64,000 bases of DNA, taken from IMG/VR virus record IMGVR_UViG_3300017909_004140, positions 32,001-96,000 of that record, one strand, 5' to 3'. Positions within the stretch are counted from its first letter, which is position 1. Every line of letters starts with the position of its first letter. Under the pieces are notes generated by a model. The model was not told where the DNA came from. It ran no database searches and worked only from the letters and a program-made list of their open reading frames with translations. The stretch comes from a virus (taxonomy: Duplodnaviria; Caudoviricetes). Shown here piece by piece: positions 27,494-49,715 of the stretch. The position numbers were made by a program, and so were the translations under genes.

Positions 27494-27836
27494 TGTACTT
27501 GAGCACCTACAAACTAAAAAGCTAACTTCGCTTGTAACTTTAACTGACACCGCAAAAGAGTATTTAACCACTGTAACCGATTTTGAAGATAAAAAATATG
27601 TTCATCTAACAGTTAACGGTGGAGGTTGTTCTGGTTTTCAGTATAAGTGGACTATGGTAGATGAGGTCGTAGAAGGAACCTTAATTGACAACATTTTAGT
27701 CTTAGATCAAATGGCTGAGATGTTTGTTTTAGGATGTACAATTGATTATGTAAAGGAATTAGGAGGATCATACCTCAAAGTGATCAATCCTAACGCTACA
27801 GCATCATGTGGTTGTGGTGAAAGTTTTGCAGTGTGA
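27486..27836 (+). CDS. HesB/IscA/ErpA A-type Fe-S carrier
   Basis: GGGCSGFQY and NPNATASCGCGESF. Confidence 0.93.
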   Translation: MASVLEHLQTKKLTSLVTLTDTAKEYLTTVTDFEDKKYVHLTVNGGGCSGFQYKWTMVDEVVEGTLIDNILVLDQMAEMFVLGCTIDYVKELGGSYLKVINPNATASCGCGESFAV

Positions 27837-32780: not shown

Positions 32781-33003
32781 TACTCGTGTTTTTGTAGTAA
32801 CAAAAAAGAACTTTGAGGAGTTTGAAAAAGAATTTGTAGAAGCATATGGAGAGTTTGCTTTTGTAGCTCTTAGTATGAAAGACTATGAAAATCTTGCATT
32901 AAATATTGCAGATATTCGTAGATTCTTGAATCAACAAGAAGAAATCATACTATACTATGAAAAAGCTGTGACAACTCCTGCGGAGGATACTGATGGCAAT
33001 TAG
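32602..33003 (+). CDS. o-spanin lipoprotein (Rz1-like)
   Basis: Lipobox LFLSGC, Pro-rich mature N-terminus, overlaps the i-spanin 3' end in another frame. Confidence 0.75.
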   Translation: MALQQTYGVSLWTILVMIGSILFLSGCSRFQPEPEIKVVTQIEKVQIPTVARPKPLQLNDTRVFVVTKKNFEEFEKEFVEAYGEFAFVALSMKDYENLALNIADIRRFLNQQEEIILYYEKAVTTPAEDTDGN

Positions 33004-34018
33004 AAAAGTAGATATAAGAAATATTGACACAACAGGCGCAAAAGTTGGAGCTAACTTAGTATATAGTCACGGTAATACCTCTTTTGAGTGGGTAAGTGGG
33101 ACTTTTACGCCAACGGTAGCTCCCTCAAATTTAGCTGGTTATGTTGCAGGCAGCTCATACGGATATGATGTGGGGGGTAATGTAACTAATGCAGGTATTA
33201 ATCGATACCCTTTTTCTTCAGATACTGATGCTACAGATGTGGGAGAAGTAATAAGTTCTAGTCATACTCAATTTGAGGGCACAGGTACTTGTTCTACTAC
33301 TTATGGGTATACTGCAGGAGGACAGCAACCAACCAGTACTCCTTCTCCTTCAAACAATATTTTACGTTTTCCCTTTACTTCTCCTGAGGGCGTTGCTTCA
33401 GATGTTGGACAGTTAACAGCAACTACTAGGTTATGTTGTGGGGGCATCTCAGATCTCGCTAATGATCGTGGATATAATGTAGGCGACATTACAGATAAAA
33501 CTATGATGAATCGCTATCCAACAGTGTCTCCTGGAAACGCAACAGATGTAGGAAATTTAGCTACTCCTAGATTTTGGGGAGCTGGTTCTTCTAGTGAGAC
33601 TGATGGATATGTTATTGGTGGCGAGACTCCTGCAGATACAAATAAAATTGAAAAATTTCCTTTTGCTTCTGAGTCTTCTTCTAACCAACCTGCTACTATA
33701 CTTGCAGTTAATAGATCACAGCACGGTCATCAAGGAGAAACTCACATATATGTGAGTGGAGGTATTAGTAACGCTGATGTAATACAGAAGTTTACCTATG
33801 CTGCTGACACTCCTGCTACAGACGTAGGAGAACTAGCAACCCCTAACTCGATGCACGGAGGAACTAGTGCCACAACAGGATATGGCTATCTAACATCAGG
33901 ATACCCATTAAATAGAAGAATTGAAAAATTTTCAATGATATCTGATGGAGGATCAACTTCTGTAGGAAATCTTACAGGATCAAACAGATATAGAACTCAA
34001 GGTAACATACAAGTATAA
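32993..34018 (+). CDS. KFPF-repeat protein, paralog 4
   Basis: RYPFSSDTDATDVGE and IEKFPFASE repeats; N-terminus RKVDIRNID...FEWVSGT shared with paralog 3. Confidence 0.7.
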   Translation: MAIRKVDIRNIDTTGAKVGANLVYSHGNTSFEWVSGTFTPTVAPSNLAGYVAGSSYGYDVGGNVTNAGINRYPFSSDTDATDVGEVISSSHTQFEGTGTCSTTYGYTAGGQQPTSTPSPSNNILRFPFTSPEGVASDVGQLTATTRLCCGGISDLANDRGYNVGDITDKTMMNRYPTVSPGNATDVGNLATPRFWGAGSSSETDGYVIGGETPADTNKIEKFPFASESSSNQPATILAVNRSQHGHQGETHIYVSGGISNADVIQKFTYAADTPATDVGELATPNSMHGGTSATTGYGYLTSGYPLNRRIEKFSMISDGGSTSVGNLTGSNRYRTQGNIQV

Positions 34019-36282: not shown

Positions 36283-36895
36283 TTTAGAAGACGGAAATGC
36301 ACAAGATCTCATTGCATACTGTGCTAGAGTATCAAACCCCTCTAACCAGATGAATAGTGAAACAAGTGCTAAACTGATTAAATACCTAATAAATAATCAG
36401 CACTGGTCTCCGCTAGAGATGGTAAATGTTTGTTTAGAGATTGAGACTACACGAGATATTGCGCATCAGATTGTACGCCATCGCTCATTTTCTTTTCAAG
36501 AGTTTTCTCAAAGGTACGCTGATCCAAAAGAGTTTGGTGATCAGTTTGTAAGACGAGAAGCACGACTTCAAGATAGAAAGAACCGACAAAACTCTATTGA
36601 AACTGATGATGAAGAGCTACAAAAACAGTGGTTGATTCAACAAGATCAGGTGATTTTAGCAGCAGACAAAGCTTATAACTGGGCTATTGAGAATGGAATT
36701 GCTAAAGAACAGGCTCGTGTAGTTCTTCCAGAAGGCCTTACTAAAACTCGTTTATATATGAATGGTACTATTAGAAGCTGGGTACACTATATTCAACTAC
36801 GCGGAGCAAATGGTACACAAAAAGAACATATGGATATCGCTCATGAGTGCGCCAAAGTCATAGCTAATGTTTTTCCAATGGCTGAGTATCTATAA
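36236..36895 (+). CDS. thyX: Flavin-dependent thymidylate synthase
   Basis: ARVS, HWSPLEM, RHRSFSFQEFSQRY, KEQARVVLP, TQKEH. Confidence 0.96.
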   Translation: MQVRLISYTQAAESSDLEDGNAQDLIAYCARVSNPSNQMNSETSAKLIKYLINNQHWSPLEMVNVCLEIETTRDIAHQIVRHRSFSFQEFSQRYADPKEFGDQFVRREARLQDRKNRQNSIETDDEELQKQWLIQQDQVILAADKAYNWAIENGIAKEQARVVLPEGLTKTRLYMNGTIRSWVHYIQLRGANGTQKEHMDIAHECAKVIANVFPMAEYL

Positions 36896-37534
36896 ACAAG
36901 AAAGGTCTCTCATCTCAAAGTGAAATGGAAATAGATAGCGTTTTACTTTTAAAACACTTTTATCTTCTTCTGTATAAGTAATCCCGTAGCATTTAGTTGC
37001 GGGATTTTCTATAGGTTCTTCAATTTCTGGAACCCAATCTCCCCAGTACGATTGTACGATAAAATCATGAGAGTTAAAAAAGTAAACATCTCTATAGTTC
37101 TTATCTAGTCCATGACTTCTTCCAATGCCAAACTGATTACCTATAGCTGATTTATAGGGAAGTTGAGGCAATTCATACTTATACATGTCTGCATCATAAG
37201 TTTTTAGCACTCTTTTTTTACTGCTTAGATAGTATTTTATTGCATAAAAGTCTAGTGAGTTAAAGTTCTCTACTTCAAACTCTTCTCTTAAATAGTGTGG
37301 ACATTTTTCATCAAAAACAACAACTATTGCGTCTTCTTCATAAGTAGTGTTATTTTTTGAGTGATAACTAATCATATCATAAGAAAAACATAAATCTTTA
37401 TTAACCTCTTCACTGAAGTAAGTAAATAGTTTATTTTTTAATTCTAACACATCAGAATCATTTGAATTACCTTTGTAAACATATTCTACAATATTATCAG
37501 AGTCATATTGAATTTCTACAAATTTATCAGTCAT
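36890..37534 (-). CDS. Hypothetical protein (last gene of the radical SAM operon)
   Basis: ORF track; overlaps the upstream gene. Confidence 0.6.
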   Translation of the reverse strand: MTDKFVEIQYDSDNIVEYVYKGNSNDSDVLELKNKLFTYFSEEVNKDLCFSYDMISYHSKNNTTYEEDAIVVVFDEKCPHYLREEFEVENFNSLDFYAIKYYLSSKKRVLKTYDADMYKYELPQLPYKSAIGNQFGIGRSHGLDKNYRDVYFFNSHDFIVQSYWGDWVPEIEEPIENPATKCYGITYTEEDKSVLKVKRYLFPFHFEMRDLSCL

Positions 37535-38210
37535 ATCCTTGTTCTACCTTTTCTTTTATAAACTTTGCTAGCCTGTTAATCCAGAAATAACGAGTCCAAT
37601 GAACTATTATGCTTACAGGATTTTTACCATTTAATACGGCTCCTCCTATGAGAAGTCTACAATAGTACCATCTTTTGTATTTTCGACCAAAACAGTGGTT
37701 CCAGTTTTCAGTTTCTTTTTCGATAACCTCTTTAGGTATCTCTTCTCCTGCTTTTGTAAAGTATAGCTTGTCTTCAATCTTAAACCAATTTTGGGTTTCA
37801 TCCATAGTTGGGTCGTCCATTACTTCGTGATAATCATTAAAAGGATCATATAAATTTATATTAGTTTGAGATTCTTGATAAAAAACTCTATACTGCGGTA
37901 ATTTTGCTTTGACTACTTGTTTAGCAAAAGCATCTCTCGATTTTTTAGACCCAAAACAAATAACAACAAAAGATTCTTCCATCCAATCATGCCCTTCGCA
38001 AGAAGAACAGGTTAAATATCCTTTTTTGTTAAGTATCTCCACTAGAGGCCAAATACCAGGATCTACTTGAGATTTAAACTCTTTCATGTATGGAGAGACA
38101 GATACGCCAACCCAATTATTACCTGTAACTGTGGCATTGACTCGTCCGTTATCGTGTAGCCAGTTTTTCTTTGTAAAATGCTCTTTTCTATAAAAATCTT
38201 TTTTATTCAT
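37527..38210 (-). CDS. Protein with TYW3/Taw3-like SSCxG motif
   Basis: VDPGIWPLVEILNKKGYLTCSSCEGH. Confidence 0.45.
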   Translation of the reverse strand: MNKKDFYRKEHFTKKNWLHDNGRVNATVTGNNWVGVSVSPYMKEFKSQVDPGIWPLVEILNKKGYLTCSSCEGHDWMEESFVVICFGSKKSRDAFAKQVVKAKLPQYRVFYQESQTNINLYDPFNDYHEVMDDPTMDETQNWFKIEDKLYFTKAGEEIPKEVIEKETENWNHCFGRKYKRWYYCRLLIGGAVLNGKNPVSIIVHWTRYFWINRLAKFIKEKVEQGYD

Positions 38211-38719
38211 CTAGGCGTAATTCCTGTAATACACAAGTTAAAAGTATCAGTTAGTAAAGGAGTTGTTCCATGTACCCACTCTTTATTTATCTGATCACAT
38301 ATGATTACTAGCCCTGTATAAGGAGTTATTTTTTTAATATTATTTTTTGTTCCGTATAAAAAGTCTCTACCTTTCATGTCTTTTTCAATATAGTAAATCA
38401 TAATTTGAACTAATCCACCAAAAGCATTGTCTGTGTGTAGGTCTACATACTCATTTTTATCTGTTTTATACGCTTCAAAAGTTTCTAATTTATCTAGAAG
38501 CTTTTGTAGATACAAATCTACTTTTGTATATAGTTGTTTGATGAAGAATTGATTAAGATAAGGAGGCATGCCTAGTGTAGACCAACTTACTTCTTTTCCT
38601 AGTTGCTTATCTTCATTTGGATAAAAAGTTAATGATTTTAGTTCTGTTTTTATATTTTTAGGTATTGTAATGCTATCAAAAGCAAAACCATTTTCTATAA
38701 CTTCTTTGTATGTAATCAT
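38207..38719 (-). CDS. 2OG-Fe(II) oxygenase
   Basis: LHTD...WVHGTTPL (HxD...H). Confidence 0.65.
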   Translation of the reverse strand: MITYKEVIENGFAFDSITIPKNIKTELKSLTFYPNEDKQLGKEVSWSTLGMPPYLNQFFIKQLYTKVDLYLQKLLDKLETFEAYKTDKNEYVDLHTDNAFGGLVQIMIYYIEKDMKGRDFLYGTKNNIKKITPYTGLVIICDQINKEWVHGTTPLLTDTFNLCITGITPR

Positions 38720-39372
38720 TTTACTAGTATAACTCCTACAAAGTTGTATGCTTTCCAGAATACTTCATACTTTTTAAAACCTATTTCTTCTATTTCTTGT
38801 AAGATATCTTCCCAAGATCTTATATTCATAGAGGCTCTTAACTCTTTTTCTTTGAGCATAATATCATCATATCTAAAGAATTTAGCTTTATAATCATAGT
38901 TTGCAAAAGTAAACACTTCTTGTAACATTGAGTCGCTAGAATACGTTTTTTCACAGAGTATTAAGGCTCCGTTAGGTATTAAAGAATCATATATATTTTT
39001 TAATACTGTTACTCTATCAGCAGTAGGTAAAAATTGAAGAGTAAACATAGAGACAGCCAAAGAAACATCAGTGCCAAACTCTAGCTTTCTCACATCTTCA
39101 ATTTTAAACTCTATATCATTATCTTCCCAGTGAGAACAAAAAGCTGTTTCATTATCTATTCCAATATATGAAACATTTTTAGCATGTGATGCTTTTTTTA
39201 TTTTTCTTAAATTTTTACCAGTAGAACATCCTAAGTCATACACTATAGTGTTATCTTGTATAAAAAAACCTGCAATAGTAGTTATCATAGTGCTTAGAGT
39301 TTTATATGAAATAATACTTTTTGATATATGATTATCAAACCCAAACGAGTGTTTTGCAAAGCTAAAACGCAT
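38716..39372 (-). CDS. CmoA-like class I SAM-dependent transferase
   Basis: FDNHISKSI, VYDLGCSTG, SMFTLQFL, L.PNGALILCEK. Confidence 0.8.
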   Translation of the reverse strand: MRFSFAKHSFGFDNHISKSIISYKTLSTMITTIAGFFIQDNTIVYDLGCSTGKNLRKIKKASHAKNVSYIGIDNETAFCSHWEDNDIEFKIEDVRKLEFGTDVSLAVSMFTLQFLPTADRVTVLKNIYDSLIPNGALILCEKTYSSDSMLQEVFTFANYDYKAKFFRYDDIMLKEKELRASMNIRSWEDILQEIEEIGFKKYEVFWKAYNFVGVILVK

Positions 39373-40276
39373 TTTTATACCTGCTTAGTAAATTTATGTA
39401 CCCATTACAGCTGTTTTTTAAGTCTTTTACAAAACGATAGTGTTCTGTTAGGCAGTGTCCTTTCCAAGAGCAATTTTGACAAACAGTAGAGAGAGACTTT
39501 TTTTCTTGCCACGCCCATTGTTCATATGTGTTGTAGTTAGTAAACTCTAAGAAATACTCTTTATCGTTTTTGTCAAAGTCTAGTACTGCATATTTACCAT
39601 TAGGAGTTATATAGATGTGATCATCTGAAAAAGCATTATACTCTTTTGTTAACGATCTTTTAATTCTTGCTTTATTTTCAAAATGAAATTTCTTCTTTAT
39701 TTTAGATTCCATCCATTTCACAACAAAGTTTTCAAAATCTCTATGACTTACTGCGTCTGCATTAGCTTGGTTTATACTATAGGGTTTTATTTCAACAGAC
39801 TTAACAGCTTTACACATATTTAATTTAGATATCATCATATCAACATCTAAATTTAGAACTCTTTTAGAAGCCAGAATTAGAACCGCTATAGGTTTAGAAC
39901 TCATTAACATATTATTAAAAACTATGTCTGATTTTTCTCTTGCTGAAAAATCATATGAGACGGAAAGAGTGACATCATCCTCGAAGAATCTGTCGTCAAG
40001 CATAGAAAAATTAGTATTAATATTGATGTAATCATGATAATGTTTGCGTATAACGGATTTAATTTCTTTGTAGTATTCTTTTTTAAGTGCGCCAATCTCT
40101 CCTCCGTATAAGTCTACGTGATCTATTTTTGGAATATTTGATAATAGTAGGTCTAGTTTTTCTGGGCTAATTCTTTTTTGATTTCCTAACTGTTCTGGAG
40201 TTAAATAACAAAAGTCACATCTGAAATTACAAAAATAACTAGGATTTATTGAGACTGAAAATATTTTATCCACCAT
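39362..40276 (-). CDS. Radical SAM enzyme with C-terminal Cys cluster
   Basis: CNFRCDFCY, YGGEI, CQNC...CLTEH...C. Confidence 0.9.
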   Translation of the reverse strand: MVDKIFSVSINPSYFCNFRCDFCYLTPEQLGNQKRISPEKLDLLLSNIPKIDHVDLYGGEIGALKKEYYKEIKSVIRKHYHDYININTNFSMLDDRFFEDDVTLSVSYDFSAREKSDIVFNNMLMSSKPIAVLILASKRVLNLDVDMMISKLNMCKAVKSVEIKPYSINQANADAVSHRDFENFVVKWMESKIKKKFHFENKARIKRSLTKEYNAFSDDHIYITPNGKYAVLDFDKNDKEYFLEFTNYNTYEQWAWQEKKSLSTVCQNCSWKGHCLTEHYRFVKDLKNSCNGYINLLSRYKNAF

Positions 40277-40671
40277 CTATACTCTTTTCCATTTATAGTT
40301 TCATAGTCTTTAGGCTCAAATCCAAATTTTTTTAATAATGTGTCTACTCTTTTATGACGACTTAATCCCCAAAGCGGGTTTCCGTTTTCTGGGGTTACAG
40401 CATAATTACCCAGTTTATATATTGCGTCAGTGCCTTGATATTTTTTATCTATTAAGATAGTTTCAAGATACTCTCCTCTATCAATAGAAACTACTGTATA
40501 GTATCCTATAGGTTTATTTTCTAGATAAAGTAGATGTGCTCTTTGTTTTTGTATTAACTCAATAAAATCATCTTTTTCATCACGTTCTTCTTTTGTCATG
40601 TTATAAGATAGAGCAATTAGTATTGGTAAATCATTGATGCTAGCTTTTTTAGTTTTGTATATCAAGAACAT
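40246..40671 (-). CDS. GNAT acetyltransferase
   Basis: KKASINDL, KPIGY, ILIDKKYQG, LLKKFGF. Confidence 0.7.
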   Translation of the reverse strand: MFLIYKTKKASINDLPILIALSYNMTKEERDEKDDFIELIQKQRAHLLYLENKPIGYYTVVSIDRGEYLETILIDKKYQGTDAIYKLGNYAVTPENGNPLWGLSRHKRVDTLLKKFGFEPKDYETINGKEYRWWIKYFQSQ

Positions 40672-41446
40672 CTCCTAATATTCTAATGTCTTGTTCGTGA
40701 TGCATATTGTGTTCTCTTTTTATCATTGGAGTAATTCTTGTATCCCAAGATATGCTTATTCTAGGCATTTTAGACTGGTTAGGCTCTACTTCGTGCCAAA
40801 CCCACGAGGGAAATAGAATGAATTTACCTATTTCAGGCTTTATGGTAATGTTAGTTGGATTAACTGATTTTGTAGGTTTATCAAAGGTATCGACATAATC
40901 ACCAAATAAACCAGAAAACTCTAAAGTACTATTATTCATCTGTCTACCGTATTCATTATATCTAGAAGTATGATTATGTCTAATAGCATCACTACTTGTT
41001 TCGTCACCTGCTTTAGTCAGCATCTCTAAATCTAAATATCCAAAATCCATCATATTAGAATTACCTTTTGGATCTACCATGAGTAGATGACTGTCATGGT
41101 CGTTTAACCAAATAGTCCCACTAATATGGTTATTAGGGTGGTTGTGAATTCCAACATTTTGACTTTGGGGAAGCACATGCGCCCAGGCATAAGACTTTAT
41201 ATCATATTGATCGGACTCAAATAAGTTATTTTTTATATACTCTTTTATTGCAGGTACTAAATTATCGTGGTAAAGTGTTTGTAGTAAAGGCTCATCTAAA
41301 CTAAACAAGTTAAATACCTCTGTCACTTCATCAGGATTGTGATATTTATTCAATATATAGTTGAATAAATTTTTAGCTAATTGTTTGTCTACTGTGCCTA
41401 AAAGTATAGGAGTTGGCCATAAGTGTCTATGTGTATACTGATTCAT
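40649..41446 (-). CDS. Putative 2OG-Fe(II) oxygenase (TIGR02466-like)
   Basis: LWPTPI, HNHPNNHISG, GKFILFPSWVWHEVEPN...RISISW. Confidence 0.8.
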   Translation of the reverse strand: MNQYTHRHLWPTPILLGTVDKQLAKNLFNYILNKYHNPDEVTEVFNLFSLDEPLLQTLYHDNLVPAIKEYIKNNLFESDQYDIKSYAWAHVLPQSQNVGIHNHPNNHISGTIWLNDHDSHLLMVDPKGNSNMMDFGYLDLEMLTKAGDETSSDAIRHNHTSRYNEYGRQMNNSTLEFSGLFGDYVDTFDKPTKSVNPTNITIKPEIGKFILFPSWVWHEVEPNQSKMPRISISWDTRITPMIKREHNMHHEQDIRILGDVLDIQN

Positions 41447-42500
41447 TTACATACTCCGTTGGTATTGCGTCTAGTTTACATATATCTATAATATCAGGTG
41501 CTAAAGATTTCATTTTTTTACAATGAATTTCTGTTAAATTTAGTCTTTTTAGATCACTGATAGTTTTTCTACATCCATTACATATTTTAAACATTGGACA
41601 GGTTAAGCATGATTGTTTTAACACCATTAAGTTAAAATCGTTTTGCAATGGGGTTTCTATTTCTTTTTGTGACATCTCTTTGTCAAAATCAATTTTATAC
41701 TCTTTATCATCTCCAAAAGCTCCACAAGAATAATAGTCTCCTCCAGGATTTAAGTTTCTAATACTTTCATCACAACGTCTATTTTGTGGGCAGGTAGTAT
41801 TCGAAGAAAATCTTTTCAATAGCTGAGTAGTATTATACTCCCACTCTGAAAGACCTAGTTTGTATATCTGTAAATATTTTTCATATATATCTGCTAGCAA
41901 ATATGTGTAGTTTTCTAGCCCCATTTTTATACCATTTAAGAATTTTATTTCAGGCCCGCTCGCTACAGCATAGTTTAACTTACAAACTACTCCCATTTTT
42001 TTAGCTAGTAGCACATTATCAATCGCTTTATCCTCGTTTTCTTTTGTAATTACGGATATGAAATCTGGACGGTAGCCTACTAATTCTTTCATTTTATTTG
42101 AAACATTCCAAAAATCTTCTTCACTAAACTCTGTGAAGTCCCCTTTTAAGCGTCCTCCTCCATATTGAAATGAGGTACATACTCCGACTCTAGGATGCTT
42201 AAATAGATTTAACCATTTGTTAGGATTTTTATAAAAAGGCCAAAGATTAGTAGTTAATGAAATAGTTGTTTCTAAAGCATGCTCCTCTAAATATTCAATT
42301 ATTTTCCAGTAGTAGTCAGGAGACATCATTAGAGGATCACCACCATTTACTATAATAGTGTTTGTATAAGGAAATCTTTTTAGAAACTGAAATATTTTAT
42401 CATGAGAGAGTTCTACTGTCTTGGAGTCTGCTATTTTTGTACTTGAGCAAAAAGTACATTTAAAGTTGCAGCGCTCTGTAGGTTTAATTATTAATTCCAT
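41427..42500 (-). CDS. Radical SAM/SPASM enzyme
   Basis: IKPTERCNFKCTFC, NGGDPL, SPASM C...C...GDYYSC...CLTCPMFKICNGC. Confidence 0.93.
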   Translation of the reverse strand: MELIIKPTERCNFKCTFCSSTKIADSKTVELSHDKIFQFLKRFPYTNTIIVNGGDPLMMSPDYYWKIIEYLEEHALETTISLTTNLWPFYKNPNKWLNLFKHPRVGVCTSFQYGGGRLKGDFTEFSEEDFWNVSNKMKELVGYRPDFISVITKENEDKAIDNVLLAKKMGVVCKLNYAVASGPEIKFLNGIKMGLENYTYLLADIYEKYLQIYKLGLSEWEYNTTQLLKRFSSNTTCPQNRRCDESIRNLNPGGDYYSCGAFGDDKEYKIDFDKEMSQKEIETPLQNDFNLMVLKQSCLTCPMFKICNGCRKTISDLKRLNLTEIHCKKMKSLAPDIIDICKLDAIPTEYVNESVYT

Positions 42501-43473
42501 CTAAAAACCCCCAATAGTCTTTCAACCAGCAATGCTCCATAGTAGCTTTTTCTGGTAGTATGTGATTTTCTTGGAAACAACCTAAGCCACACTTACTAAA
42601 ATAATCACACATTAAACAATTGAATCCTTCTATCCATTTTGCTTCCATTTTTTCTCTACTATCGTGGGTCATAGCTCTATAGTTACCTCCTACTAGTAGA
42701 TTACAATGACCTATTTCTCCATCAGCAGCTATTACACTTGTTCTCTGACAGGTTAAATTTTTTCTAGTATCTCCTAATAAATACTTATCTATAGGACTGA
42801 CTTTAGGATAATTGATACTTAAAAATTTAAACATATCTAGCAGTTCTGTATCACTAGGGCAGTTTATACTAGCATTTTTTTCAGGAGTGTAGTAGTCAAA
42901 ATATATATTAAAATTCTCATATAGATAGTCAAATCCAGTAACTTCTTTGTTTAAAAACTTATAAATATTGGGAGCTGTTAATATGATGTTTACTGTTTGA
43001 ATATACTCTTTAAAATATCTCACATTATCCATAAAAACATCTAACTGGTTAGTATTAAAGCGCCCAGCTGGATCATAACTAACAGCAAGATTTATATTAA
43101 GCCTATCTAATAAATTTTTTACTCTGACTCTATCATTCCATATCATATTAGAAGTAATAAGAAATTCACTATTTTCAAACGATTTTTGGCACCTAAGAAT
43201 TAAAGACTCAATTTTACTTAAAATTTGATTTGAAATTTCATCACTCAGAATCTCTCCTCCCATAAAATGAAAGGAAAATTGTTCTTTATTTTGTGCGCGT
43301 AAGTTTTCGTAGACGCTTTTTATCGCAAAGTATTTTTCTGGGATGGAGTTCACACCCTCAAATGAATTATGATTTTGAGAACAAAAACTACACGCAAGAT
43401 TACAGTGTTCGAATAGGGTAACAATAACCTCTCCTAGATTAGACGATTTTTTATCTATTACACTACTGTACAT
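42484..43473 (-). CDS. Radical SAM/SPASM enzyme
   Basis: CNLACSFC, MGGEI, C...DGEIGHC...CLMCDYFSKCGLGC...C. Confidence 0.92.
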   Translation of the reverse strand: MYSSVIDKKSSNLGEVIVTLFEHCNLACSFCSQNHNSFEGVNSIPEKYFAIKSVYENLRAQNKEQFSFHFMGGEILSDEISNQILSKIESLILRCQKSFENSEFLITSNMIWNDRVRVKNLLDRLNINLAVSYDPAGRFNTNQLDVFMDNVRYFKEYIQTVNIILTAPNIYKFLNKEVTGFDYLYENFNIYFDYYTPEKNASINCPSDTELLDMFKFLSINYPKVSPIDKYLLGDTRKNLTCQRTSVIAADGEIGHCNLLVGGNYRAMTHDSREKMEAKWIEGFNCLMCDYFSKCGLGCFQENHILPEKATMEHCWLKDYWGFLDGINN

Positions 43474-44602
43474 AACCTTCTCTGAAACTATGGTGATCTG
43501 TTAGTTGCCAACTTCTTACTTTTTTAGTATTTCTTTCTTTATTATTTACAAAAGGTTTAAACTTATCTCTTTTTTCTTCTAGTGAGTATTCTAACAACTT
43601 ATCATATCTTTTTTCTTTACAAAGTAGGTAAAAATATCTTAGCAAATAGTGGGTTGTTTTGTCTTGGTGTTGATACTCTCCTATGTTACCTCCTGCATAT
43701 ATGGTATTGATATCTATATCAATAATTTTTCTTAAGCCAATCTCTCCCGTAATGAATAGTTCCATTAACTGCTCGCTGTCAAAAAACCCATTATGTCCAT
43801 ACTTCATCACTGATTTACGATATAACTTAAAAATAGTTTTCATATCGTAGTTGTTTTTAACATATTCTAAACTAGGATAAGCTTTTATATTCTCATCCAT
43901 TAGCCAACTATATTCATCAGGTAGTTTTAAATCTGCATACTCTGCGGTTTCATATAAGTGAGATCCATAATCAACATTTTCTAATAAGTCTCCTAGTTCG
44001 AACAGCTGACACATTACATTCATTTTCCAGTAGGTAAGTTCGTTCAGCACTGTATCTGCAACTATACCATATAGTTTTTTATACAAAATATCTTTATGTG
44101 CATATTTTGTGTTAGATAAATAACTAGCTAAGTGTAGCTCTGTGCAAGCTCCTTTTATATAACTACTATTTAACTCATGTTTATTACACTGTTCATATAC
44201 TTTATTGAACTCCTCAAAAGATAATAGTTTTAAAGAATCCCAAGGAGACCGTAAATTTATAGAACCATCGTCGTGTGATAAGCATGATTTTCCATGAAGA
44301 TATATATGCTTTTGTAATACTAGCTTATAAAAGTGATAAATAGATAAGGGAGAGTGGTTAGGCAGGATAGATTTTAGATATGTAGTAAGTATTTTTACAT
44401 AAGTTTCTTCTTCTGCTAAAACTATAAGTTCAGTATCTTTTTTGATGTTTTTGAAAGCATCGTTACCAAACAAGTCATCAGCATCTTTAAAATAATTCCA
44501 AGTGCTAGGAATAGGTGCTTCATACCCAACTAAGAATTTAGGAGTGTCCGGAGGGTAACAAAAGCTAAAATCTAGATAAACATTATTTATTAGGTTGAAC
44601 AC
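43463..44602 (-). CDS. Hypothetical protein in the radical SAM operon
   Basis: Long ORF overlapping both neighbours. Confidence 0.6.
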   Translation of the reverse strand: MFNLINNVYLDFSFCYPPDTPKFLVGYEAPIPSTWNYFKDADDLFGNDAFKNIKKDTELIVLAEEETYVKILTTYLKSILPNHSPLSIYHFYKLVLQKHIYLHGKSCLSHDDGSINLRSPWDSLKLLSFEEFNKVYEQCNKHELNSSYIKGACTELHLASYLSNTKYAHKDILYKKLYGIVADTVLNELTYWKMNVMCQLFELGDLLENVDYGSHLYETAEYADLKLPDEYSWLMDENIKAYPSLEYVKNNYDMKTIFKLYRKSVMKYGHNGFFDSEQLMELFITGEIGLRKIIDIDINTIYAGGNIGEYQHQDKTTHYLLRYFYLLCKEKRYDKLLEYSLEEKRDKFKPFVNNKERNTKKVRSWQLTDHHSFREGYVQ

Positions 44603-45281
44603 CGGCTGCTATCCCTGATACAAATACTAAAAGTGGCACATTATGTTCAAGCATCCAGCCGTATAAATTTTGTTCGTCATAGATATATTCTTCAGAATAG
44701 TGTTTAAAATACCTTTTTCTAGAACCAGAGGTTTCGTATATTTCAAATATAAAAGGGTTATTAATTAGGTTAATAACATTTTTACCTAATATTTCTGGGT
44801 CATCTACTACTTCATAATTTTTTAACTCTTCGTTTACAAAATCACTCAGAGAAGATACAAAAGAAAGAGTTGTAATAGGAAGTGACTCTAAGAAATCTGT
44901 AGTGTTTAACAGTTCATTATAAAATTCGTCAATAAACTTATCTGTCCATTCCTCAGTTAAAAGACTCATAGAGTATAAATCATCAACATCTATATTATTA
45001 TATTTAAGTACAATGTAGGTTAGCCCTAGCTCAAGCTCTTTACAGGTGATTAAATTGTTAGATGTAAAGTATAGCCTTAATAGTTCATACTTTTCTTCTT
45101 GTGTAGTGTTGTATAGATTAAGTTTAAAATCAATATCTAGATTAGATACATAATTAAAAAACGTTCTACCACTGATATCACTATCATAATACATTATTTC
45201 AAACTGTATTTTTTCTTCTTCCATAAAATATTGTTGTAAAAGCTCTACGTCAATAGGTGCTTTTGTTTTTATAACTCTCAT
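44583..45281 (-). CDS. Hypothetical protein in the radical SAM operon
   Basis: ATGA-coupled to the CHxx-repeat gene. Confidence 0.6.
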   Translation of the reverse strand: MRVIKTKAPIDVELLQQYFMEEEKIQFEIMYYDSDISGRTFFNYVSNLDIDFKLNLYNTTQEEKYELLRLYFTSNNLITCKELELGLTYIVLKYNNIDVDDLYSMSLLTEEWTDKFIDEFYNELLNTTDFLESLPITTLSFVSSLSDFVNEELKNYEVVDDPEILGKNVINLINNPFIFEIYETSGSRKRYFKHYSEEYIYDEQNLYGWMLEHNVPLLVFVSGIAAGVQPNK

Positions 45282-45877
45282 CTTCTTCCTCTTGAACTAT
45301 GACAGTTACTATGACAGCTTGCGTGGCAAGTATCTACAAATATAGTAACTTGATTTTCTTTTAAAGTATTCCACTGACTATATAGATTAGCTATATAATC
45401 TTCAAAATTAGAGGCGTCTATAACATCTCCTTCTTGAATATCATATGTAGCGCTATTATCTGTAACAGTTTGTTTATACGCAGAACCATCTAAGTGAATA
45501 AAATCAGTAGTGGTTCTTTGTTGTACATTATTTCCATTACCGCTAGGATATCCCGTTCTGTTAAAACGCAGTCTCCAGTTTAGTTTTCTAACTCCTGTAT
45601 AGTCTCTCGTTAGGTTACGTAAATAAGTTGCTAACTGTGCCGCATCTACTACTGCGTCTAGTCCCCCGCTAACTGCGGGGGCTACAGTGGGAGTTCCTAC
45701 TACTGAAAAAGGCACTCCTCCTTTAGGCGCGTTAGTTAGATTTGAATATGTTCCTGAAGAGAAAGGTGTTCCTGTTCCTACATCAATAACGGGGTTTATA
45801 GCATCTCTCATTACTTCGTTAAATCGGTTAACAACTAGTGCTTTGCTTACTTCATCTCCTGCATTAATAGTCGGCAT
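45278..45877 (-). CDS. Virion-like protein with C-terminal (CHxx)3-RGRR tail; candidate modification substrate
   Basis: Ends DTCHASCHSNCHSSRGRR; internal repeats INAGDEVSKA / IQEGDVIDAS; Gly/Thr/Val-rich composition. Confidence 0.65.
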   Translation of the reverse strand: MPTINAGDEVSKALVVNRFNEVMRDAINPVIDVGTGTPFSSGTYSNLTNAPKGGVPFSVVGTPTVAPAVSGGLDAVVDAAQLATYLRNLTRDYTGVRKLNWRLRFNRTGYPSGNGNNVQQRTTTDFIHLDGSAYKQTVTDNSATYDIQEGDVIDASNFEDYIANLYSQWNTLKENQVTIFVDTCHASCHSNCHSSRGRR

Positions 45878-46901
45878 AATATTCTCCTTGCTTTAATACC
45901 TGTATGGGGGTATTTTTTATTAGTTTAAATAGTTCTTTTGGCGAAGGACAGTGTGATTCATCCCACTCTAATTGATGACATCCGCTACCACACAAATCAA
46001 ATACTTCGCATTTATAACATCTTTCGTCTCTAGCTGCTTCACAAGCTATTAGTTCCATTCTTTTAGGTTTGAAAATTAATTCCCAAATCTCTTCATTTAT
46101 ATTACCATAAACTTCTTCAGGAGCAGCATTAGGACATCCGCTTATACTACCATCTGCATTTATAGTAAATAATTTTTGTTCACAGTCTCTACAAAAAGTA
46201 GCCGCTTGAGTTCCATTTGTTCTTGTTTTGACCATAGAGTTTATAAATGAATCAGTCCAGTTTTTAGGAGTGGTGTCTTTGTAAATTTCTAAAAACCAAT
46301 CAGCCTGTTCTTTATTACTGGGAAATATCTCAGGATGTTTTTTAGCATTTCCATGATCTGTAAGTCTTTCAAAATCTACTACATCTACGTTCAATGAGTT
46401 AAAATACTCTATAATTTCTTTAGGTTTAGTATTACAAAGTTCCTTGGTAACACTCACAAACATCGTTATAAAACAATCTAGCTCTTTTAATCTTTTTACA
46501 TTTTTCTCCCAAAGAGTTTTTTGTTTTTCATTAGAAAACCGTATACTTTTATCCCAAGAAGTTCCAATAACTCCTTTTAAGTCTTCAGTAATAAATTTAA
46601 TTTTTTCTTCACTTAAATTAAAAGTTAAGTTACTAGTAATACCAAATGAGACGTTATCATCATACTTCATACTATCAACTACATATTTCATATCTTTAAC
46701 AGGAGCAAGAAAAGGCTCTCCTCCGTGAAACTCAAAATGAATATGATTCGTTTTATAGTGCTTTCTTAATTTTTTTATCCAATCTACTGTTCTTTTAGGA
46801 TTAAAGTATATTTTTCTACCGTTTATTCCGTTTGTAAAACAGTGTTTACAATTGAGCTGACAAGTTTCCGTGGTTTTCAGATAAACTGTTATAGGATGCA
46901 T
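45864..46901 (-). CDS. Radical SAM/SPASM enzyme
   Basis: LKTTETCQLNCKHC, FHGGEPFL, CRDC...TINADGSISGCPN...CYKCEVFDLCGSGC...CP. Confidence 0.94.
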   Translation of the reverse strand: MHPITVYLKTTETCQLNCKHCFTNGINGRKIYFNPKRTVDWIKKLRKHYKTNHIHFEFHGGEPFLAPVKDMKYVVDSMKYDDNVSFGITSNLTFNLSEEKIKFITEDLKGVIGTSWDKSIRFSNEKQKTLWEKNVKRLKELDCFITMFVSVTKELCNTKPKEIIEYFNSLNVDVVDFERLTDHGNAKKHPEIFPSNKEQADWFLEIYKDTTPKNWTDSFINSMVKTRTNGTQAATFCRDCEQKLFTINADGSISGCPNAAPEEVYGNINEEIWELIFKPKRMELIACEAARDERCYKCEVFDLCGSGCHQLEWDESHCPSPKELFKLIKNTPIQVLKQGEYYADY

Positions 46902-47460
46902 CGTTTTCCATCTGTAGTGTCTGTAATTTTAAATCAATATACTTGTAGTATTTTCTTATACCAAAACTTAATGAAACATTTTCTGTAAGATTGTCTGCAT
47001 AATGAGCTTTTTCTCCTGGTATAAACACAGACTCGCCTGCTTTAAGAACAACTTCTTCCTTATGGTCTGGAAATACCATCTTTTTAGTTCCAGAAAGAAG
47101 TAGTATTACTACATCATAAGGATCTACGTGAGCAATAAAACTCGACTTTCCTTCTTTTCCCCAGTATAAGTGACAATCTATATATTCTTCTTCAGTTTTG
47201 AAGTTACATATCGTTGAAATGAACTCATCGTATTTTTCAAACCCTTCTACTTTAAATGTGTTCTTGCTCTTTGCTTTTATTTTTGTTAAAGTATTTTTAT
47301 AAGAGTTCGGAAATACCATATTTTCTTCAGCATTTTCAATGTAGAATACTTTTCCATCTCTTATGAAATGATAATTAGTTATCAATTCTATAGGTTTTAT
47401 ATTATGATATTTTTCGTACAATTCATGCGAAAAAGTTTTTATATGGTTAGATAAATTCAT
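46846..47460 (-). CDS. JmjC/cupin (YcfD/RoxA-like) oxygenase
   Basis: SFIAHVDPYDVVILLLSGTKK...LKAGESVFIPGEKAHYA. Confidence 0.8.
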   Translation of the reverse strand: MNLSNHIKTFSHELYEKYHNIKPIELITNYHFIRDGKVFYIENAEENMVFPNSYKNTLTKIKAKSKNTFKVEGFEKYDEFISTICNFKTEEEYIDCHLYWGKEGKSSFIAHVDPYDVVILLLSGTKKMVFPDHKEEVVLKAGESVFIPGEKAHYADNLTENVSLSFGIRKYYKYIDLKLQTLQMENDASYNSLSENHGNLSAQL

Positions 47461-48739: not shown

Positions 48740-48816
48740 GGTTGCGTAGCTCAACAGGATAGAGCAACGGCCTTCTAAGCCGTAGGTTGAGGGTTCGAGT
48801 CCTTCCGCAATCGCCA
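48740..48816 (+). tRNA. tRNA-Arg(TCT)
   Basis: GGTTGCG/CGCAATC acceptor, anticodon arm ACGGC-CT-TCT-AA-GCCGT, GGTTCGAGTCC T arm, encoded CCA. Confidence 0.96.
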
Positions 48817-48818
48817 AT

Positions 48819-48893
48819 GCGGGTATAGTATAACGGCTATTACTACAGCCTTCCAAGCTGAAGATCGGAGTTCGATTCTCCGTACCCGCTCCA
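48819..48893 (+). tRNA. tRNA-Gly(TCC)
   Basis: GCGGGTA/TACCCGC acceptor, CAGC-CT-TCC-AA-GCTG, GTTCGATT T loop, encoded CCA. Confidence 0.95.
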
Positions 48894-48908: not shown

Positions 48909-49715
48909 ATGACAAAAAAATATATTGCAGTAAGTGGTGGATTTGATCCAGTACATAAAGGTCATTTAGAGATGATTGAAGAAGCAGCAGAGCATGGTGA
49001 TGTTGTTGTGCTTCTTAATTCTGATAAATGGCTAGCTAGTAAAAAAGGCAAAGCTTTTATGGACGAAGAGCAACGCTCTTATATTATGTCGTCTATTAAA
49101 GGAGTCGTTAATGTTATTATTGGGGATGACTCTGATGGAACTGTTTTAGACGCACTAAAACAGTTTAAAGAACAATATTCTGATGAAGAGGTAGAACTTT
49201 GCTTTGCTAATGGCGGAGATAGAAAAAATGATAATGTTCCTGAGGTTGAGTACTGCTTAGTAAATGACATTCAATTACTTTGGAATATTGGGGGAGAAAA
49301 AACACAATCTTCTTCTCATTTATTATCTAATTGGGCAGGGGAGCACTGTGTTAGAGATTGGGGGACTTGGACAGTTCTAAAAGATTATGGATCAGTAAAA
49401 GTAAAAGAGCTACATGTGCTACCAGATAAAGAATTATCTTTTCAAAAACATGAACATCGTTCTGAACATTGGTATGTTGTAAAAGGCACAGCGTATATTT
49501 ATAATGGTAAAGTTATTCCAGGGGAGGTTGTAAAACAACATAATACAGTAGACATTCCTCAAGGGGCTTGGCACCAGTTGTGTAACTATTCAACTACTGA
49601 ACCTCTTTTTATTTTAGAGGTACAACAAGGAGAAAAGTGTATTGAAGAAGATATTGAGCGTATTGATGCTCCTCGCCACGATTGGAGAGGCAAACGCGAC
49701 GGAAAATCTATCTAA
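48909..49715 (+). CDS. HIGH-family nucleotidyltransferase fused to a mannose-6-phosphate-isomerase-type cupin
   Basis: SGGFDPVHKGH, LNSD, FANGGDR; then WG.W...LSFQKHEHRSEHWYVV...EEDIER. Confidence 0.85.
   Translation: MTKKYIAVSGGFDPVHKGHLEMIEEAAEHGDVVVLLNSDKWLASKKGKAFMDEEQRSYIMSSIKGVVNVIIGDDSDGTVLDALKQFKEQYSDEEVELCFANGGDRKNDNVPEVEYCLVNDIQLLWNIGGEKTQSSSHLLSNWAGEHCVRDWGTWTVLKDYGSVKVKELHVLPDKELSFQKHEHRSEHWYVVKGTAYIYNGKVIPGEVVKQHNTVDIPQGAWHQLCNYSTTEPLFILEVQQGEKCIEEDIERIDAPRHDWRGKRDGKSI

Follow-up and report, generated by a model that had tools for sequence, protein, structure and literature searches.

A conserved eight-gene phage module links four radical SAM enzymes to a Cys-His-tailed protein, their candidate maturation substrate

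A tightly packed operon with a conserved eight-gene core

The window, a stretch of 64,000 nucleotides from a marine phage (IMG/VR record IMGVR_UViG_3300017909_004140), contains a tightly packed operon of 14 open reading frames, all on the minus strand from 47460 to 36890, with each gene overlapping the next by 4 to 56 nt. A ThyX gene abuts the operon, and two tRNA genes lie 1.3 kb upstream of it. In transcription order, the features are:

46846..47460, minus: g01, JmjC_2/cupin Fe(II)/2OG oxygenase; core, first gene
45864..46901, minus: g02, radical SAM/SPASM enzyme; core, always directly upstream of g03
45278..45877, minus: g03, 199-aa tail protein, presumed substrate; alpha/beta body with a predicted disordered C-terminal tail; core
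45281..45328, minus: coding sequence of the 16-residue tail CHASCHSNCHSSRGRR, 3' end of g03
44583..45281, minus: g04, 232-aa acidic protein, no recognised family; core, directly downstream of g03
43463..44602, minus: g05, 379-aa protein, no recognised family; core, fast-evolving
42484..43473, minus: g06, radical SAM/SPASM enzyme (CNLACSFC); core
41427..42500, minus: g07, radical SAM/SPASM enzyme; core, most conserved member
40649..41446, minus: g08, 2OG-Fe(II) oxygenase (2OG-FeII_Oxy_5 / TIGR02466-like); accessory
40246..40671, minus: g09, 141-aa possible acetyltransferase (weak match); close relatives only
39362..40276, minus: g10, radical SAM enzyme whose C-terminal Cys cluster is shorter; core, after g07 in most loci
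38716..39372, minus: g11, CmoA-like SAM-dependent enzyme; lineage-specific insertion, not module-bound
38207..38719, minus: g12, 170-aa protein, no recognised family; close relatives only, 7 loci
37527..38210, minus: g13, 227-aa protein, SSC-E/H-G-H motif conserved; accessory, 32 loci
36890..37534, minus: g14, 214-aa protein, no recognised family, last gene; accessory, 11 loci

Eight of the 14 genes form a conserved module: the oxygenase g01, the four radical SAM (rSAM) enzymes g02, g06, g07 and g10, the tail protein g03, and g04 and g05, which belong to no recognised family. The others (g08, g09, g11, g12, g13 and g14) are lineage-specific additions outside this core. Pfam, NCBIfam and PHROG profiles gave no peptidase or transporter match for any of the 14 proteins, we detected no RRE/PqqD-like domain, and no peptidase or exporter lies within the core module in any locus examined.

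An earlier sequence-only reading of this DNA had described 14 overlapping genes without peptidase or transporter, including a JmjC oxygenase, four rSAM enzymes, a 199-aa protein ending (CHxx)3RGRR, a 2OG-Fe oxygenase (g08), a CmoA-like gene (g11) and an SSCEGH protein (g13), and our analysis agrees on each of these, for g11 as a resemblance. Its proposal of a 14-gene tailoring system may hold for the eight genes conserved with g03 and is not supported for the other six: a tailoring line of 14 enzymes is unsupported because only these eight are conserved with g03 and the CmoA-like gene is common in module-free phages.

Core enzymes and their accessory neighbours

The oxygenase g01, upstream of g02 in almost all loci, scores above the cut-off of JmjC_2 (PF08007; 2.7e-9, 37.1 bits, cut-off 22) and matches phrog_8014 at 3e-21; among 61 homologues, its HxD...H triad (H111, D113, H153) and K126 each reach 90% conservation or more. 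Each of the four rSAM enzymes carries CxxxCxxC and all retain their cluster cysteines, with full SPASM-type Cys sets in g02, g06 and g07. g02 (CQLNCKHC at residue 14; 11 conserved Cys) reaches 35.7 bits against the SPASM model TIGR04085 (cut-off 27), and its best full-length matches are DarE, anSME, PapB and YhhB at 1e-13 to 1e-17, all far under the family cut-offs. g06 matches Radical_SAM, Fer4_12 and phrog_1802 (1.6e-38) and conserves C24, C28, C31, C242, C286, C289, C295, C299 and C315. g07, with 249 related loci in IMG/VR and a median identity of 65% over 61 homologues, exceeds the PF04055 cut-off (40.1 bits) and resembles DynA and anSME at 1e-15 to 1e-18, while g10 (CNFRCDFC; phrog_1802, 5.2e-26; median identity 61%) conserves C16, C20, C23, C266, C269, C275 and C290. 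The best rSAM matches are peptide or protein maturases (DarE, DynA, anSME, PapB, YhhB, HxsB, HxsC), with the PqqE and MftC families among the weak ones; as the maturase matches fall far below the family cut-offs, their chemistry is not transferable to the operon.

The two remaining core proteins have no Pfam or PDB match. g04 (net charge -22) matches phrog_20767 at 5.6e-33 and has homologues in RSF1, Atu_ph07, Phosso and Burkholderia phages; g05 matches phrog_36207 and was recovered in 84 loci by profile iteration, mostly directly after g04. Since no enzyme has an N-terminal recognition domain, both are probably non-catalytic helpers.

Among the accessory genes, g08 matches PF13759 (2OG-FeII_Oxy_5, 1.7e-18) and phrog_81, with BLAST relatives in only some loci. 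The GNAT call made earlier for g09, which occurs in 7 loci, agrees with a PHROG acetyltransferase match (phrog_1249, 4.8e-4) but with no other family. g11 scores 121.9 bits against TIGR00740 (3.2e-35), under the 193-bit cut-off, and matches phrog_4752; it is missing from locus L004, its homologues occur in many module-free phages (cyanophages, Staphylococcus phages and Erwinia phages), and the phage genome contains no CmoB. The earlier 2OG-Fe oxygenase call for g12 is unsupported, only an HxD...H pattern being visible: the protein has no Pfam, NCBIfam or PHROG match and no profile similarity to g08 (hhalign probability 0.7%). g13 has nine invariant residues (G22, R23, S39, P40, K63, Y65, S70, C71, H74) and no PDB match; a TYW3 match at its SSC motif (E 0.0067) is under threshold and limited to three near-identical members, and its language-model neighbours are DUF6919 and TYW3 (0.85-0.90), so that it is possibly a TYW3/DUF6919-like SAM-binding domain, a lead only. 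g14 has no family match in Pfam, NCBIfam or PHROG.

A nearly invariant tail on a divergent protein family

All three cysteines of g03 lie within its last 16 residues, CHASCHSNCHSSRGRR. The protein belongs to a large family without a name (445 representative clusters at 50% identity) whose bodies drop to about 25% identity while the tail, (C-H-x-S/N)x3-R-x-R-R, stays nearly invariant; the exact ending CHxxCHxxCHxxRxRR is present in 120 of the 151 best representatives, a level of conservation that argues against chance. In the position logo, Ser or Asn nearly always fills the fourth place of each repeat. Comparing 71 distinct DNA sequences of the tail, we found Cys, His and Arg invariant but their codons freely variable (TGT/TGC, CAT/CAC, AGA/CGN; Ser from both codon boxes), and thus the constraint acts on the peptide. 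An AF2 model of g03 from 134 sequences (pLDDT 80.7, pTM 0.81) has a confident fold without a match in PDB; residues 185-199, the tail, are of low confidence and extend past its last beta-strand, where they are predicted to be accessible. The amino-acid composition of g03 resembles that of this phage's structural genes, whereas its 13 operon neighbours do not.

Tail protein and enzymes form an obligate pair

Gene order is fixed in the 27 loci found through g03 (cupin, rSAM, g03, g04, (g05), rSAM, rSAM, rSAM), and the same order is seen in RSF1 and Atu_ph07. Of 58 g07-seeded loci whose upstream flank reached 8 kb or more, 50 contain a tail ORF; four of the other eight were inspected as whole records, and all four encode the tail protein just beyond the fetched flank. 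The sequence-only reading had suggested scoring this co-occurrence and had named homologous operons lacking the tail protein as counter-evidence; the pairing was instead recovered from both the g03 side and the g07 side, supporting an obligate pair of tail protein and rSAM enzymes. Besides g03, the core module holds no other conserved candidate substrate. The module is also present in Bdellovibrionota chromosomes (g07 copies 54-63% identical in five genomes), and as the module-bearing chromosomes contain no T4-type terminase, a virion role is not universal.

A homologue is associated with virions of Atu_ph07

The g03 homologue of Agrobacterium phage Atu_ph07 is gp170 (AUZ94952; computed mass 31.894 kDa, tabulated 31.89 kDa). 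The published virion proteome of this phage lists gp170 with 8 unique peptides and 35% coverage, but not its enzyme neighbours gp168, gp169 and gp171-175. gp170 peaks in gel slice 1, at the top, as do proteins of 87-127 kDa (gp197, gp20), whereas other 31-32 kDa proteins peak in slice 7, a pattern that fits an SDS-resistant or covalently linked form. A single PEG-purified preparation from one distant phage underlies this proteome, whose 131 proteins include some replication enzymes, so gp170 could be carry-over. The earlier description of g03 as probably structural is in line with gp170 and with the composition of g03, but need not extend to the Bdellovibrionota chromosomes.

Comparison with characterised systems

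Among characterised systems, HXS, which acts in defence (PMC13128918), and CrpA/CrpC (PMC13692751) come nearest, and they date the earlier statement that no characterised system is like this one; the operon is a member of neither. In the antiphage system HXS, HxsB and HxsC are rSAM enzymes that, together with HxsD, mature HxsA; maturation has been located at an S-H-x-S-S unit, the repeats have basic residues on their flanks, and the process depends on a small non-catalytic partner (Li et al., Nat Commun 2026, PMC13128918). Both systems encode several rSAM enzymes beside a full-length protein with tandem His-x-Ser units, in g03 three H-x-S/N units followed by RGRR. However, the HxsB and HxsC models give g02 and g07 scores of 37.9 and 35 bits (cut-offs 370 and 268), none of the 14 proteins matches the HxsA or HxsD models, each g03 repeat begins with an invariant Cys and the repeats sit at the extreme C-terminus, and the operon has four rSAM enzymes plus a JmjC oxygenase. 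HXS belongs to a bacterial defence island and the periplasm, whereas the present module is phage-encoded, with a product found in a virion.

Triceptide rSAM synthases link His-C2 to the C-beta of the +2 residue, as proven on HAA, HNR and HTK, and these rSAM/SPASM enzymes (HaaB, HtkB, YhhB) act on repeated aromatic-X-X motifs (PMC11499958). The g03 tail shows the same pattern, with His and its +2 Ser/Asn conserved around a variable middle residue, although here we only infer a crosslink. Triceptide precursors are short leader-core peptides, whereas the g03 motif ends a folded protein of ~190 residues without a leader; the invariant Cys before each His has no triceptide counterpart, and the YhhB, XyeB, FxsB and GrrM models reach 21-49 bits (cut-offs 310-450).

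We also compared maturases of protein substrates, namely CrpC/CrpA, the anaerobic sulfatase maturase (anSME) and QhpD; against these, the operon stands alone in its phage context and its four paralogous enzymes. CrpC, an rSAM-SPASM enzyme with three clusters, makes thioethers (ranthionines) on Cys of the folded, adjacently encoded CrpA (PMC13692751), which is Cys-rich throughout, whereas g03 has Cys in its tail only. Both g02 and g07 have anSME among their best full-length matches (~1e-16), yet at 59.5 bits against a family cut-off of 349. The last g03 repeat, C-H-x-S-R, shares its C-x-x-x-R spacing with the sulfatase motif, C-x-P/A-x-R, but Gly, Ser or Asn replaces the Pro/Ala in the g03 family. 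Like the ribosomal oxygenases (YcfD/RoxA, NO66, MINA53), g01 scores above the PF08007 cut-off and has the iron-binding HxD...H triad; this family includes the ribosomal-protein Arg/His hydroxylases YcfD, NO66 and MINA53. The hydroxylation carried out by JmjC_2 oxygenases targets the C-beta of protein Arg or His, two residue types that are invariant in the g03 tail. Unlike the ribosomal oxygenases, g01 has ~200 residues, covers only part of the profile and is without the winged-helix and dimerisation parts.

Alternative readings of the module

The tail could instead be a metal or iron-sulfur binding element, with the rSAM enzymes acting elsewhere: three Cys-His pairs, possibly assembled through oligomerisation, would coordinate Fe, Zn or an Fe-S cluster, making g03 either a cluster donor or electron partner of the four enzymes or a metal-stapled virion tip comparable to the His-bound iron sites of T4 fibres. 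Marine T4-like phages with many rSAM genes do carry Fe-S assembly genes (PMC5332604). The Cys and His are invariant at a fixed 4-residue spacing, and by their conserved Cys sets the four enzymes together would require up to 11 [4Fe-4S] clusters. Yet the Ser/Asn at repeat position 4 and the R-x-R-R end, neither needed for ligation, are as conserved as Cys and His; we know of no Fe-S scaffold signature that the motif matches; the presence of gp170 but not the enzymes in virions is odd for a cluster donor; and the core offers no other conserved candidate substrate. We consider metal binding unlikely.

PQQ (from PqqA) and mycofactocin (from MftA) arise by the action of rSAM/SPASM enzymes on a carrier C-terminus, and g03 could be a disposable scaffold of this kind, its tail crosslinked and afterwards released by a host protease to yield a small molecule or cofactor. 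The extreme C-terminal, disordered position of the tail and the weak PqqE and MftC matches agree with this, but the missing peptidase or exporter, a ~180-residue body that is conserved as a fold and far exceeds known scaffolds, and the full-size gp170 recovered from virions make it highly improbable. The least probable alternative, to which we give very little weight, is that nucleic acid, as tRNA or phage DNA bases, is the target of the enzymes, with g03 as bystander or cofactor. JmjC, radical SAM, TYW3-like and CmoA-like proteins recall the wybutosine and cmo5U tRNA pathways. In favour are g11, the TYW3 signals of g13, the abutting ThyX, the two DHFR genes inside the RSF1 cluster and the nearby tRNA genes. 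However, g11 and g13 are not core, the former occurring in module-free phages and the latter in only its 32 loci; the TYW3 match is subthreshold; the SPASM-bearing rSAM enzymes match peptide maturases, not TYW1 or QueE; CmoB is absent; and g03 is kept wherever the enzymes occur. A nucleic-acid role is plausible for the accessory g11 and g13 alone.

A proposed maturation of the tail

On balance, we favour the eight-gene core as a protein-maturation module acting on the disordered tail at the C-terminus of g03, (Cys-His-x-Ser/Asn)x3-Arg-Gly-Arg-Arg, which the enzymes most likely crosslink and hydroxylate. g04 and g05, probably non-catalytic, would present the folded substrate; the rSAM enzymes would take hydrogen atoms from tail residues and so form intramolecular crosslinks, candidates being triceptide-like His-C2 to C-beta bonds on the three H-x-S/N units and/or Cys thioethers; and the JmjC-type oxygenase g01 may hydroxylate His or Arg. 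Matured g03 would then become part of the virus particle or be carried along with it. The RiPP-style modification of a phage protein suggested by the sequence-only reading is thereby strengthened by the obligate pairing and the virion homologue, but narrowed to eight of the 14 genes and to a role that is not purely virion. If correct, the module would represent an uncharacterised chemical finishing step on a protein whose homologue in a cultured relative belongs to the virus particle.

Organization of the operon and its surroundings

The sequence belongs to a 107-kb IMG/VR virus record with a completeness estimate of 91%, and DNA near-identical to the window is present in seawater and marine metagenomes from several studies; no RNA run was among the public runs listed with such DNA. 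Between 47460 and 36890, fourteen consecutive minus-strand ORFs overlap their neighbours by 4 to 56 nt, and we refer to them as g01 to g14 in transcription order.

Genes of the operon (47460 to 36890)
g01, 204 aa, minus strand: JmjC_2/cupin oxygenase, above the PF08007 cut-off
g02, 345 aa, minus strand: radical SAM protein with SPASM domain
g03, 199 aa, minus strand: tail protein, C-terminus CHASCHSNCHSSRGRR
g04, 232 aa, minus strand: no Pfam or NCBIfam family
g05, 379 aa, minus strand: no Pfam or NCBIfam family
g06, 329 aa, minus strand: radical SAM/SPASM
g07, 357 aa, minus strand: radical SAM/SPASM
g08, 265 aa, minus strand: 2OG-FeII_Oxy_5
g09, 141 aa, minus strand: single weak acetyltransferase PHROG match
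g10, 304 aa, minus strand: radical SAM
g11, 218 aa, minus strand: CmoA-like, under the equivalog cut-off
g12, 170 aa, minus strand: no family match in the searches run
g13, 227 aa, minus strand: SSCEGH motif
g14, 214 aa, minus strand: no family match in the searches run

ORF calling and family searches bore out the sequence-only reading of these fourteen genes apart from two calls: a 2OG oxygenase at g12 is unsupported, with no relation between g12 and g08 in hhalign, and a GNAT at g09 is weak, given its one PHROG match. That reading had seen no peptidase or transporter, and family searches of all fourteen proteins likewise matched neither. Pfam matches were absent from all 21 members of the g04 family and all 24 of the g05 family, neither had a PDB sequence match, and nothing was returned for g04 from the protein atlas. 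A scan for operon promoters and terminators did not do better than shuffles.

Other features of the window
4672 to 19446, minus strand: about 16 overlapping genes, among them a sugar aminotransferase and several glycosyltransferases; a glycan or nucleotide-sugar pathway is probable
19930 to 20430, minus strand: permuted tmRNA of alphaproteobacterial type (Rfam RF01849, 123.5 bits; ARAGORN tag peptide ANDNFAPMDMPLAA), which hints at an alphaproteobacterial host
27833 to 28888, 30427 to 31431 and 32993 to 34018, plus strand: three phrog_19111 paralogues (function not known), structural-gene-like in composition
36890 to 36895: ThyX abutting the operon end, stop codons overlapping
48740 to 48893, plus strand: tRNA-Arg(TCT) and tRNA-Gly(TCC), opposite in strand to the operon and 1.3 kb upstream of its start
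48909 to 49715: cytidylyltransferase/cupin fusion
50248 to 52410: 720-aa tail-fibre-like gene, close to the three phrog_19111 paralogues
61911 to 62885, plus strand: the record's fifth radical SAM gene, not related to the operon enzymes; its nearest matches, tungsten-cofactor maturase and MoaA, fall below cut-off (3.9e-26)
63505 to 63987, plus strand: IbpA-like small heat-shock protein gene near the fifth radical SAM gene

An eight-gene module is retained across phages

Comparison of related loci separated conserved from accessory genes. The order g01, g02, g03, g04, then g06, g07 and g10 is kept in 27 IMG/VR loci located via g03, and the fast-evolving g05 was found by iterated profile search in 84 loci, mostly straight after g04. 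Genes g08, g13 and g14 occur only in subsets of loci, g09, g11 and g12 are limited to the four closest relatives, and one locus carries the entire operon minus g11. Homologues of the CmoA-like g11 are found in cyanophages, Staphylococcus phages and Erwinia phages, none of which is among the cultured phages that bear the module. From this retention pattern we conclude that the functional unit is an eight-gene module, namely the g01 oxygenase, the radical SAM enzymes g02, g06, g07 and g10, the tail protein g03, and g04 and g05. The modification system first proposed for the whole 14-gene operon would be confined to these eight genes, the remaining six being accessory.

Neither tblastn with g03 nor megablast with the operon found a match in cultured phages; these relatives were reached via g04, g07 and profiles. 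The first route was the g04 search, which returned homologues in Ralstonia RSF1/RSL2, Burkholderia FLC6/FLC8, Agrobacterium Atu_ph07 and Sinorhizobium Phosso. The gene order in RSF1 and Atu_ph07 is that of the window (cupin, radical SAM, small protein, unknowns, then radical SAM enzymes), and their small proteins have the C-termini CHSSCHSSCHGSRGRR and CHSSCHASCHNSRSRR, respectively. The RSF1 copy of the module also contains two dihydrofolate reductase genes (12611 to 13727). In some loci the g07 matches were over-long, as if an intron were present, which we ruled out: ORF lengths were normal, Rfam returned none, and the matches had been joined to the neighbouring paralogue g10.

The tail protein accompanies the enzymes

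The census was repeated from the enzyme g07 to exclude an artefact of finding loci via g03. Among 249 g07-related places in IMG/VR, tail ORFs were counted in the best 80, of which 58 had at least 8 kb of upstream flank, and an ORF with the tail was present in 50 of these 58. Whole records were searched for four of the eight exceptions, and all four encode a g03 homologue just past the fetched flank. The remaining exceptions are like those searched: L102 and L105 have their ORFs arranged as in L104, and L064 and L065 the gene-presence pattern and match coordinates of L063. A 28.6-kb fragment outside the 58 (L086, about 10% complete) gave no g03 match and cannot separate presence from absence. 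Taken with the whole-record checks, the enzyme-first census therefore argues against homologous operons that lack the tail protein, the outcome that the sequence-only reading had named as speaking against it.

The Cys-His tail is nearly invariant on a divergent body

Exhaustive profile searching placed g03 in a family of 445 representative clusters at 50% identity. The ending CHxxCHxxCHxxRxRR, which had been singled out for a database search, is exact in 120 of the 151 best representatives, and the others deviate from it slightly, by a single added residue or by additional repeats. Within this 16-residue tail no change occurs at the Cys, the His or the three Arg; the fourth repeat position holds Ser or Asn, the third is variable, and the residue between the Arg is mostly Gly. 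Across 71 distinct tail DNA sequences codons varied freely (TGT/TGC, CAT/CAC, both Ser boxes, AGA/CGN), and selection therefore acts on the tail peptide, not on a nucleic-acid signal. Cys is confined to the tail in 85 of the 120 exact-tail members.

The g03 body shows about 25% identity between distant members. Structure prediction with AF2 from 134 sequences gave a confident alpha/beta domain (pLDDT 80.7, pTM 0.81) with the tail as a low-confidence extension past the last strand; a model from only 9 sequences was poor (pLDDT 62). The fold had no match in the PDB (best Foldseek E 1.4, best VIA-align Z 3.6), and the BFVD returned only members of its own family. In composition g03 is rich in Gly, Ala, Thr, Ser and Val, like the tail-fibre-like and neighbouring structural-type genes of this phage, and all 13 of its operon neighbours are rich in Lys, Ile, Asn, Glu and Tyr.

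Two tandem tail-protein copies, some of merely 125 to 140 aa, occur in phages and MAG contigs (L046, L049, L059, L062, L109, L123, L131, L133, L143 and L160), L030 carries a member with six CH repeats, and the 453-aa member P0085 has an N-terminal Gly_rich_2 domain (PF21722, 7e-11) fused ahead of the g03-like domain and tail.

The radical SAM enzymes fall outside characterised families

The phage record contains exactly five CxxxCxxC radical SAM ORFs, and four of them are the operon genes g02, g06, g07 and g10, whose cluster motif is retained in homologues of each; the radical SAM Cys sets are at least 90% conserved across 61 homologues per enzyme. Median identity over 61 homologues was strikingly high for g07 (65%) and g10 (61%), and 27% for g01. 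Auxiliary Cys sets typical of SPASM occur in g02, g06 and g07, and g10 has a shorter four-Cys C-terminal set; against the SPASM model TIGR04085 (cut-off 27) g02 scored 35.7 bits, g07 26.3 and g06 17.6. All four enzymes begin within 25 residues of the cluster motif and thus have no fused N-terminal RRE domain. In NCBIfam they come closest to maturases of peptides and proteins (DarE, DynA, anSME, PapB, YhhB, CbpB, HxsB, HxsC), at 20-65 bits against cut-offs of 270-650. By sequence, the four enzymes lie in the radical SAM/SPASM superfamily and outside every characterised family.

The oxygenase g01 scored 37.1 bits against JmjC_2 (PF08007, cut-off 22) and conserves the 2-His-1-carboxylate triad HxD...H (H111, D113, H153) plus a Lys. 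PF08007 includes ribosomal-protein Arg and His hydroxylases, and His and Arg, the residue types hydroxylated by its members, are invariant in the tail. Among the accessory genes, g11 reached 121.9 bits against CmoA (TIGR00740, cut-off 193.3); the 107-kb phage record has no CmoB (PF08003), a partner that the host may supply. The TYW3 signal of g13 falls below threshold, at 16.2 bits against PF02676 (cut-off 27) over 28 residues only, and occurs in just 3 of 9 g13 members; its neighbours by language model at 0.85-0.90, DUF6919 and TYW3, serve as no more than leads, and the g13 profile had no PDB match.

Comparison with known maturation systems

Several known systems share features with the module. 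In the HXS system the substrate of HxsB and HxsC is HxsA, a protein with HxS repeats that shows a +8 Da shift at SHRSS once matured (PMC13128918). The operon enzymes fall well short of its models (g02 37.9 bits against 370 for HxsB, TIGR03978; g07 35.0 against 267.9 for HxsC, TIGR03977; g10 16.2 against the HXS enzyme models), and none of the 14 proteins matches HxsA or HxsD. Three H-x-S/N units are visible in g03, which however lacks the peptidoglycan-binding domain of HxsA and any NCBIfam or Pfam match. Similarly, g03 contains three C-x-x-x units but is a folded 199-aa protein, whereas the CXXX-repeat target is a short peptide, and the corresponding maturase model (TIGR04115, cut-off 350) gave 31.5 bits for g02 and 21.2 for g06.

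On HAA, HNR and HTK motifs, radical SAM triceptide synthases form a bond from His-C2 to C-beta at position +2 (PMC11499958). The tail fits the triceptide pattern of conserved first and third residues: across 120 sequences the His never changes, Ser or Asn occupies position +2 in 88-100%, and the middle residue is variable. The cyclophane synthase families themselves did not match (YhhB 48.8 bits against 445, XyeB 30.9 against 450, FxsB 34.8 against 370, GrrM 21.3 against 310, AmcB 28.5 against 425). For anSME (TIGR03942, cut-off 349) g02 and g07 scored 59.5 and 57.7 bits, and the last tail repeat, C-H-(G/S/N)-S-R, resembles the target motif C/S-x-P/A-x-R but lacks Pro or Ala at position 3. Cys thioethers are formed by radical SAM-SPASM enzymes on peptides and on a protein, CrpA (PMC13692751).

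Assignment to HXS, the CXXX-repeat system, the characterised cyclophane synthases, anSME, CmoA and TYW3 failed throughout; among the maturase and enzyme-family searches only the superfamily-level assignments, radical SAM/SPASM and JmjC_2, held. The module seems to act like radical SAM protein-maturation systems but is a distinct one, set apart by a new substrate family, four paralogous enzymes with an oxygenase, phage and predator hosts, and a virion destination. Full-text literature searches on radical SAM clusters of phages, on phage proteins resembling RiPPs and on radical SAM systems in Bdellovibrio yielded passing annotations only.

A tail-protein homologue in virions and the module in predatory bacteria

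The g03 homologue of Atu_ph07, AUZ94952, corresponds to gp170: accession order fits AUZ94962 as gp180, AUZ94958 as gp176 and AUZ94959 as gp177, with sizes agreeing, and the mass calculated for it, 31.894 kDa, agrees with the 31.89 kDa given in the table. It is listed among the virion proteins, covered to 35% by 8 unique peptides (Attai et al. Table S5, PMC6102473), and the neighbouring enzyme genes gp168, gp169 and gp171-175 are missing from that table (PMC6102473). It was detected in gel slices 1 to 9 with its maximum in slice 1, where the 87-127 kDa proteins gp197 and gp20 peak; other 31-32 kDa proteins peak in slice 7 (PMC6102473). This one table hints at an SDS- and heat-resistant high-mass form of gp170.

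A degenerate tail DNA pattern run over one-per-species prokaryote genomes hit 47 places, of which about 37 were real in-frame g03 family ORFs, mostly with adjoining module genes, and about 10 were out-of-frame chance matches in high-GC genomes. The majority are from Bdellovibrionota, some of them on contigs 1.3 to 2.8 Mb long, and five Bdellovibrionota genomes (G006-G010), with the module on the chromosome, each carry one g07 copy at 54-63% identity. A 178-kb Bacteriovoracaceae contig (L164) holds a complete module at 4726-15614 with five radical SAM genes and no cupin detectable by BLAST. Terminase_6N had no match in the five genomes; since it was the sole terminase type searched, a prophage origin of these copies is possible. 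Evidently, the module works in a cellular setting too.

Proposed maturation of the tail and alternatives

We consider it probable, from the combined analyses, that the g03 tail is the substrate on which the core module acts as a maturation system. Candidate reactions would be His-C2 to C-beta links on the three H-x-S/N units, after the triceptide precedent, and Cys thioethers, after CrpA; HxsA-type maturation of H-x-S units offers a further candidate precedent. The choice and order of these reactions and the roles of g04 and g05 are our inference. With a net charge of -22, g04 might hold the basic RGRR end; a g04-g03 complex prediction (score 0.00, controls absent) speaks neither for nor against this.

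A tail that purely binds metal or a cluster would account for its Cys and His, and we regard this as unlikely. Production of a peptide-derived small molecule appears quite improbable for a folded protein with a homologue in virions and an operon without peptidase or transporter matches. Modification of nucleic acid we think very improbable for the module as a whole, and more plausible if only the accessory g11 and g13 are considered.

Beyond maturation of the tail by the core module, we tentatively advance a further reading, which we think doubtful: the oxygenase, together with all four radical SAM enzymes, would build an undescribed polycyclic Cys-His tail structure that staples g03 into invasion-apparatus assemblies. 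The structure could be, for example, thio-imidazole-type or a multiply bridged knob, the stapling may be covalent or metal-dependent, and the assemblies may be very large and SDS-resistant. Such a device may be common to jumbo and marine phages and predatory Bdellovibrionota, because both must breach the Gram-negative envelope.

Radical-SAM maturation is known chiefly from short secreted peptides, with only a handful of recent cases on whole proteins. The eight-gene module described here, which encodes four radical SAM enzymes, is retained across hundreds of phage lineages and predatory bacteria and is strictly tied to one protein family, whose 16-residue tail is almost frozen and which is found in the particle of a cultured phage. 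Cultured carriers whose hosts are tractable (Ralstonia RSF1 and RSL2, Agrobacterium Atu_ph07, Pseudomonas pPa_SNUABM_DT01, Sinorhizobium Phosso) make the proposal directly testable. If the tail is modified, it would represent new post-translational chemistry on a virion component, would account for the abundant radical SAM genes in many large marine and soil phages, and would make the module a phage-side counterpart of bacterial HXS.
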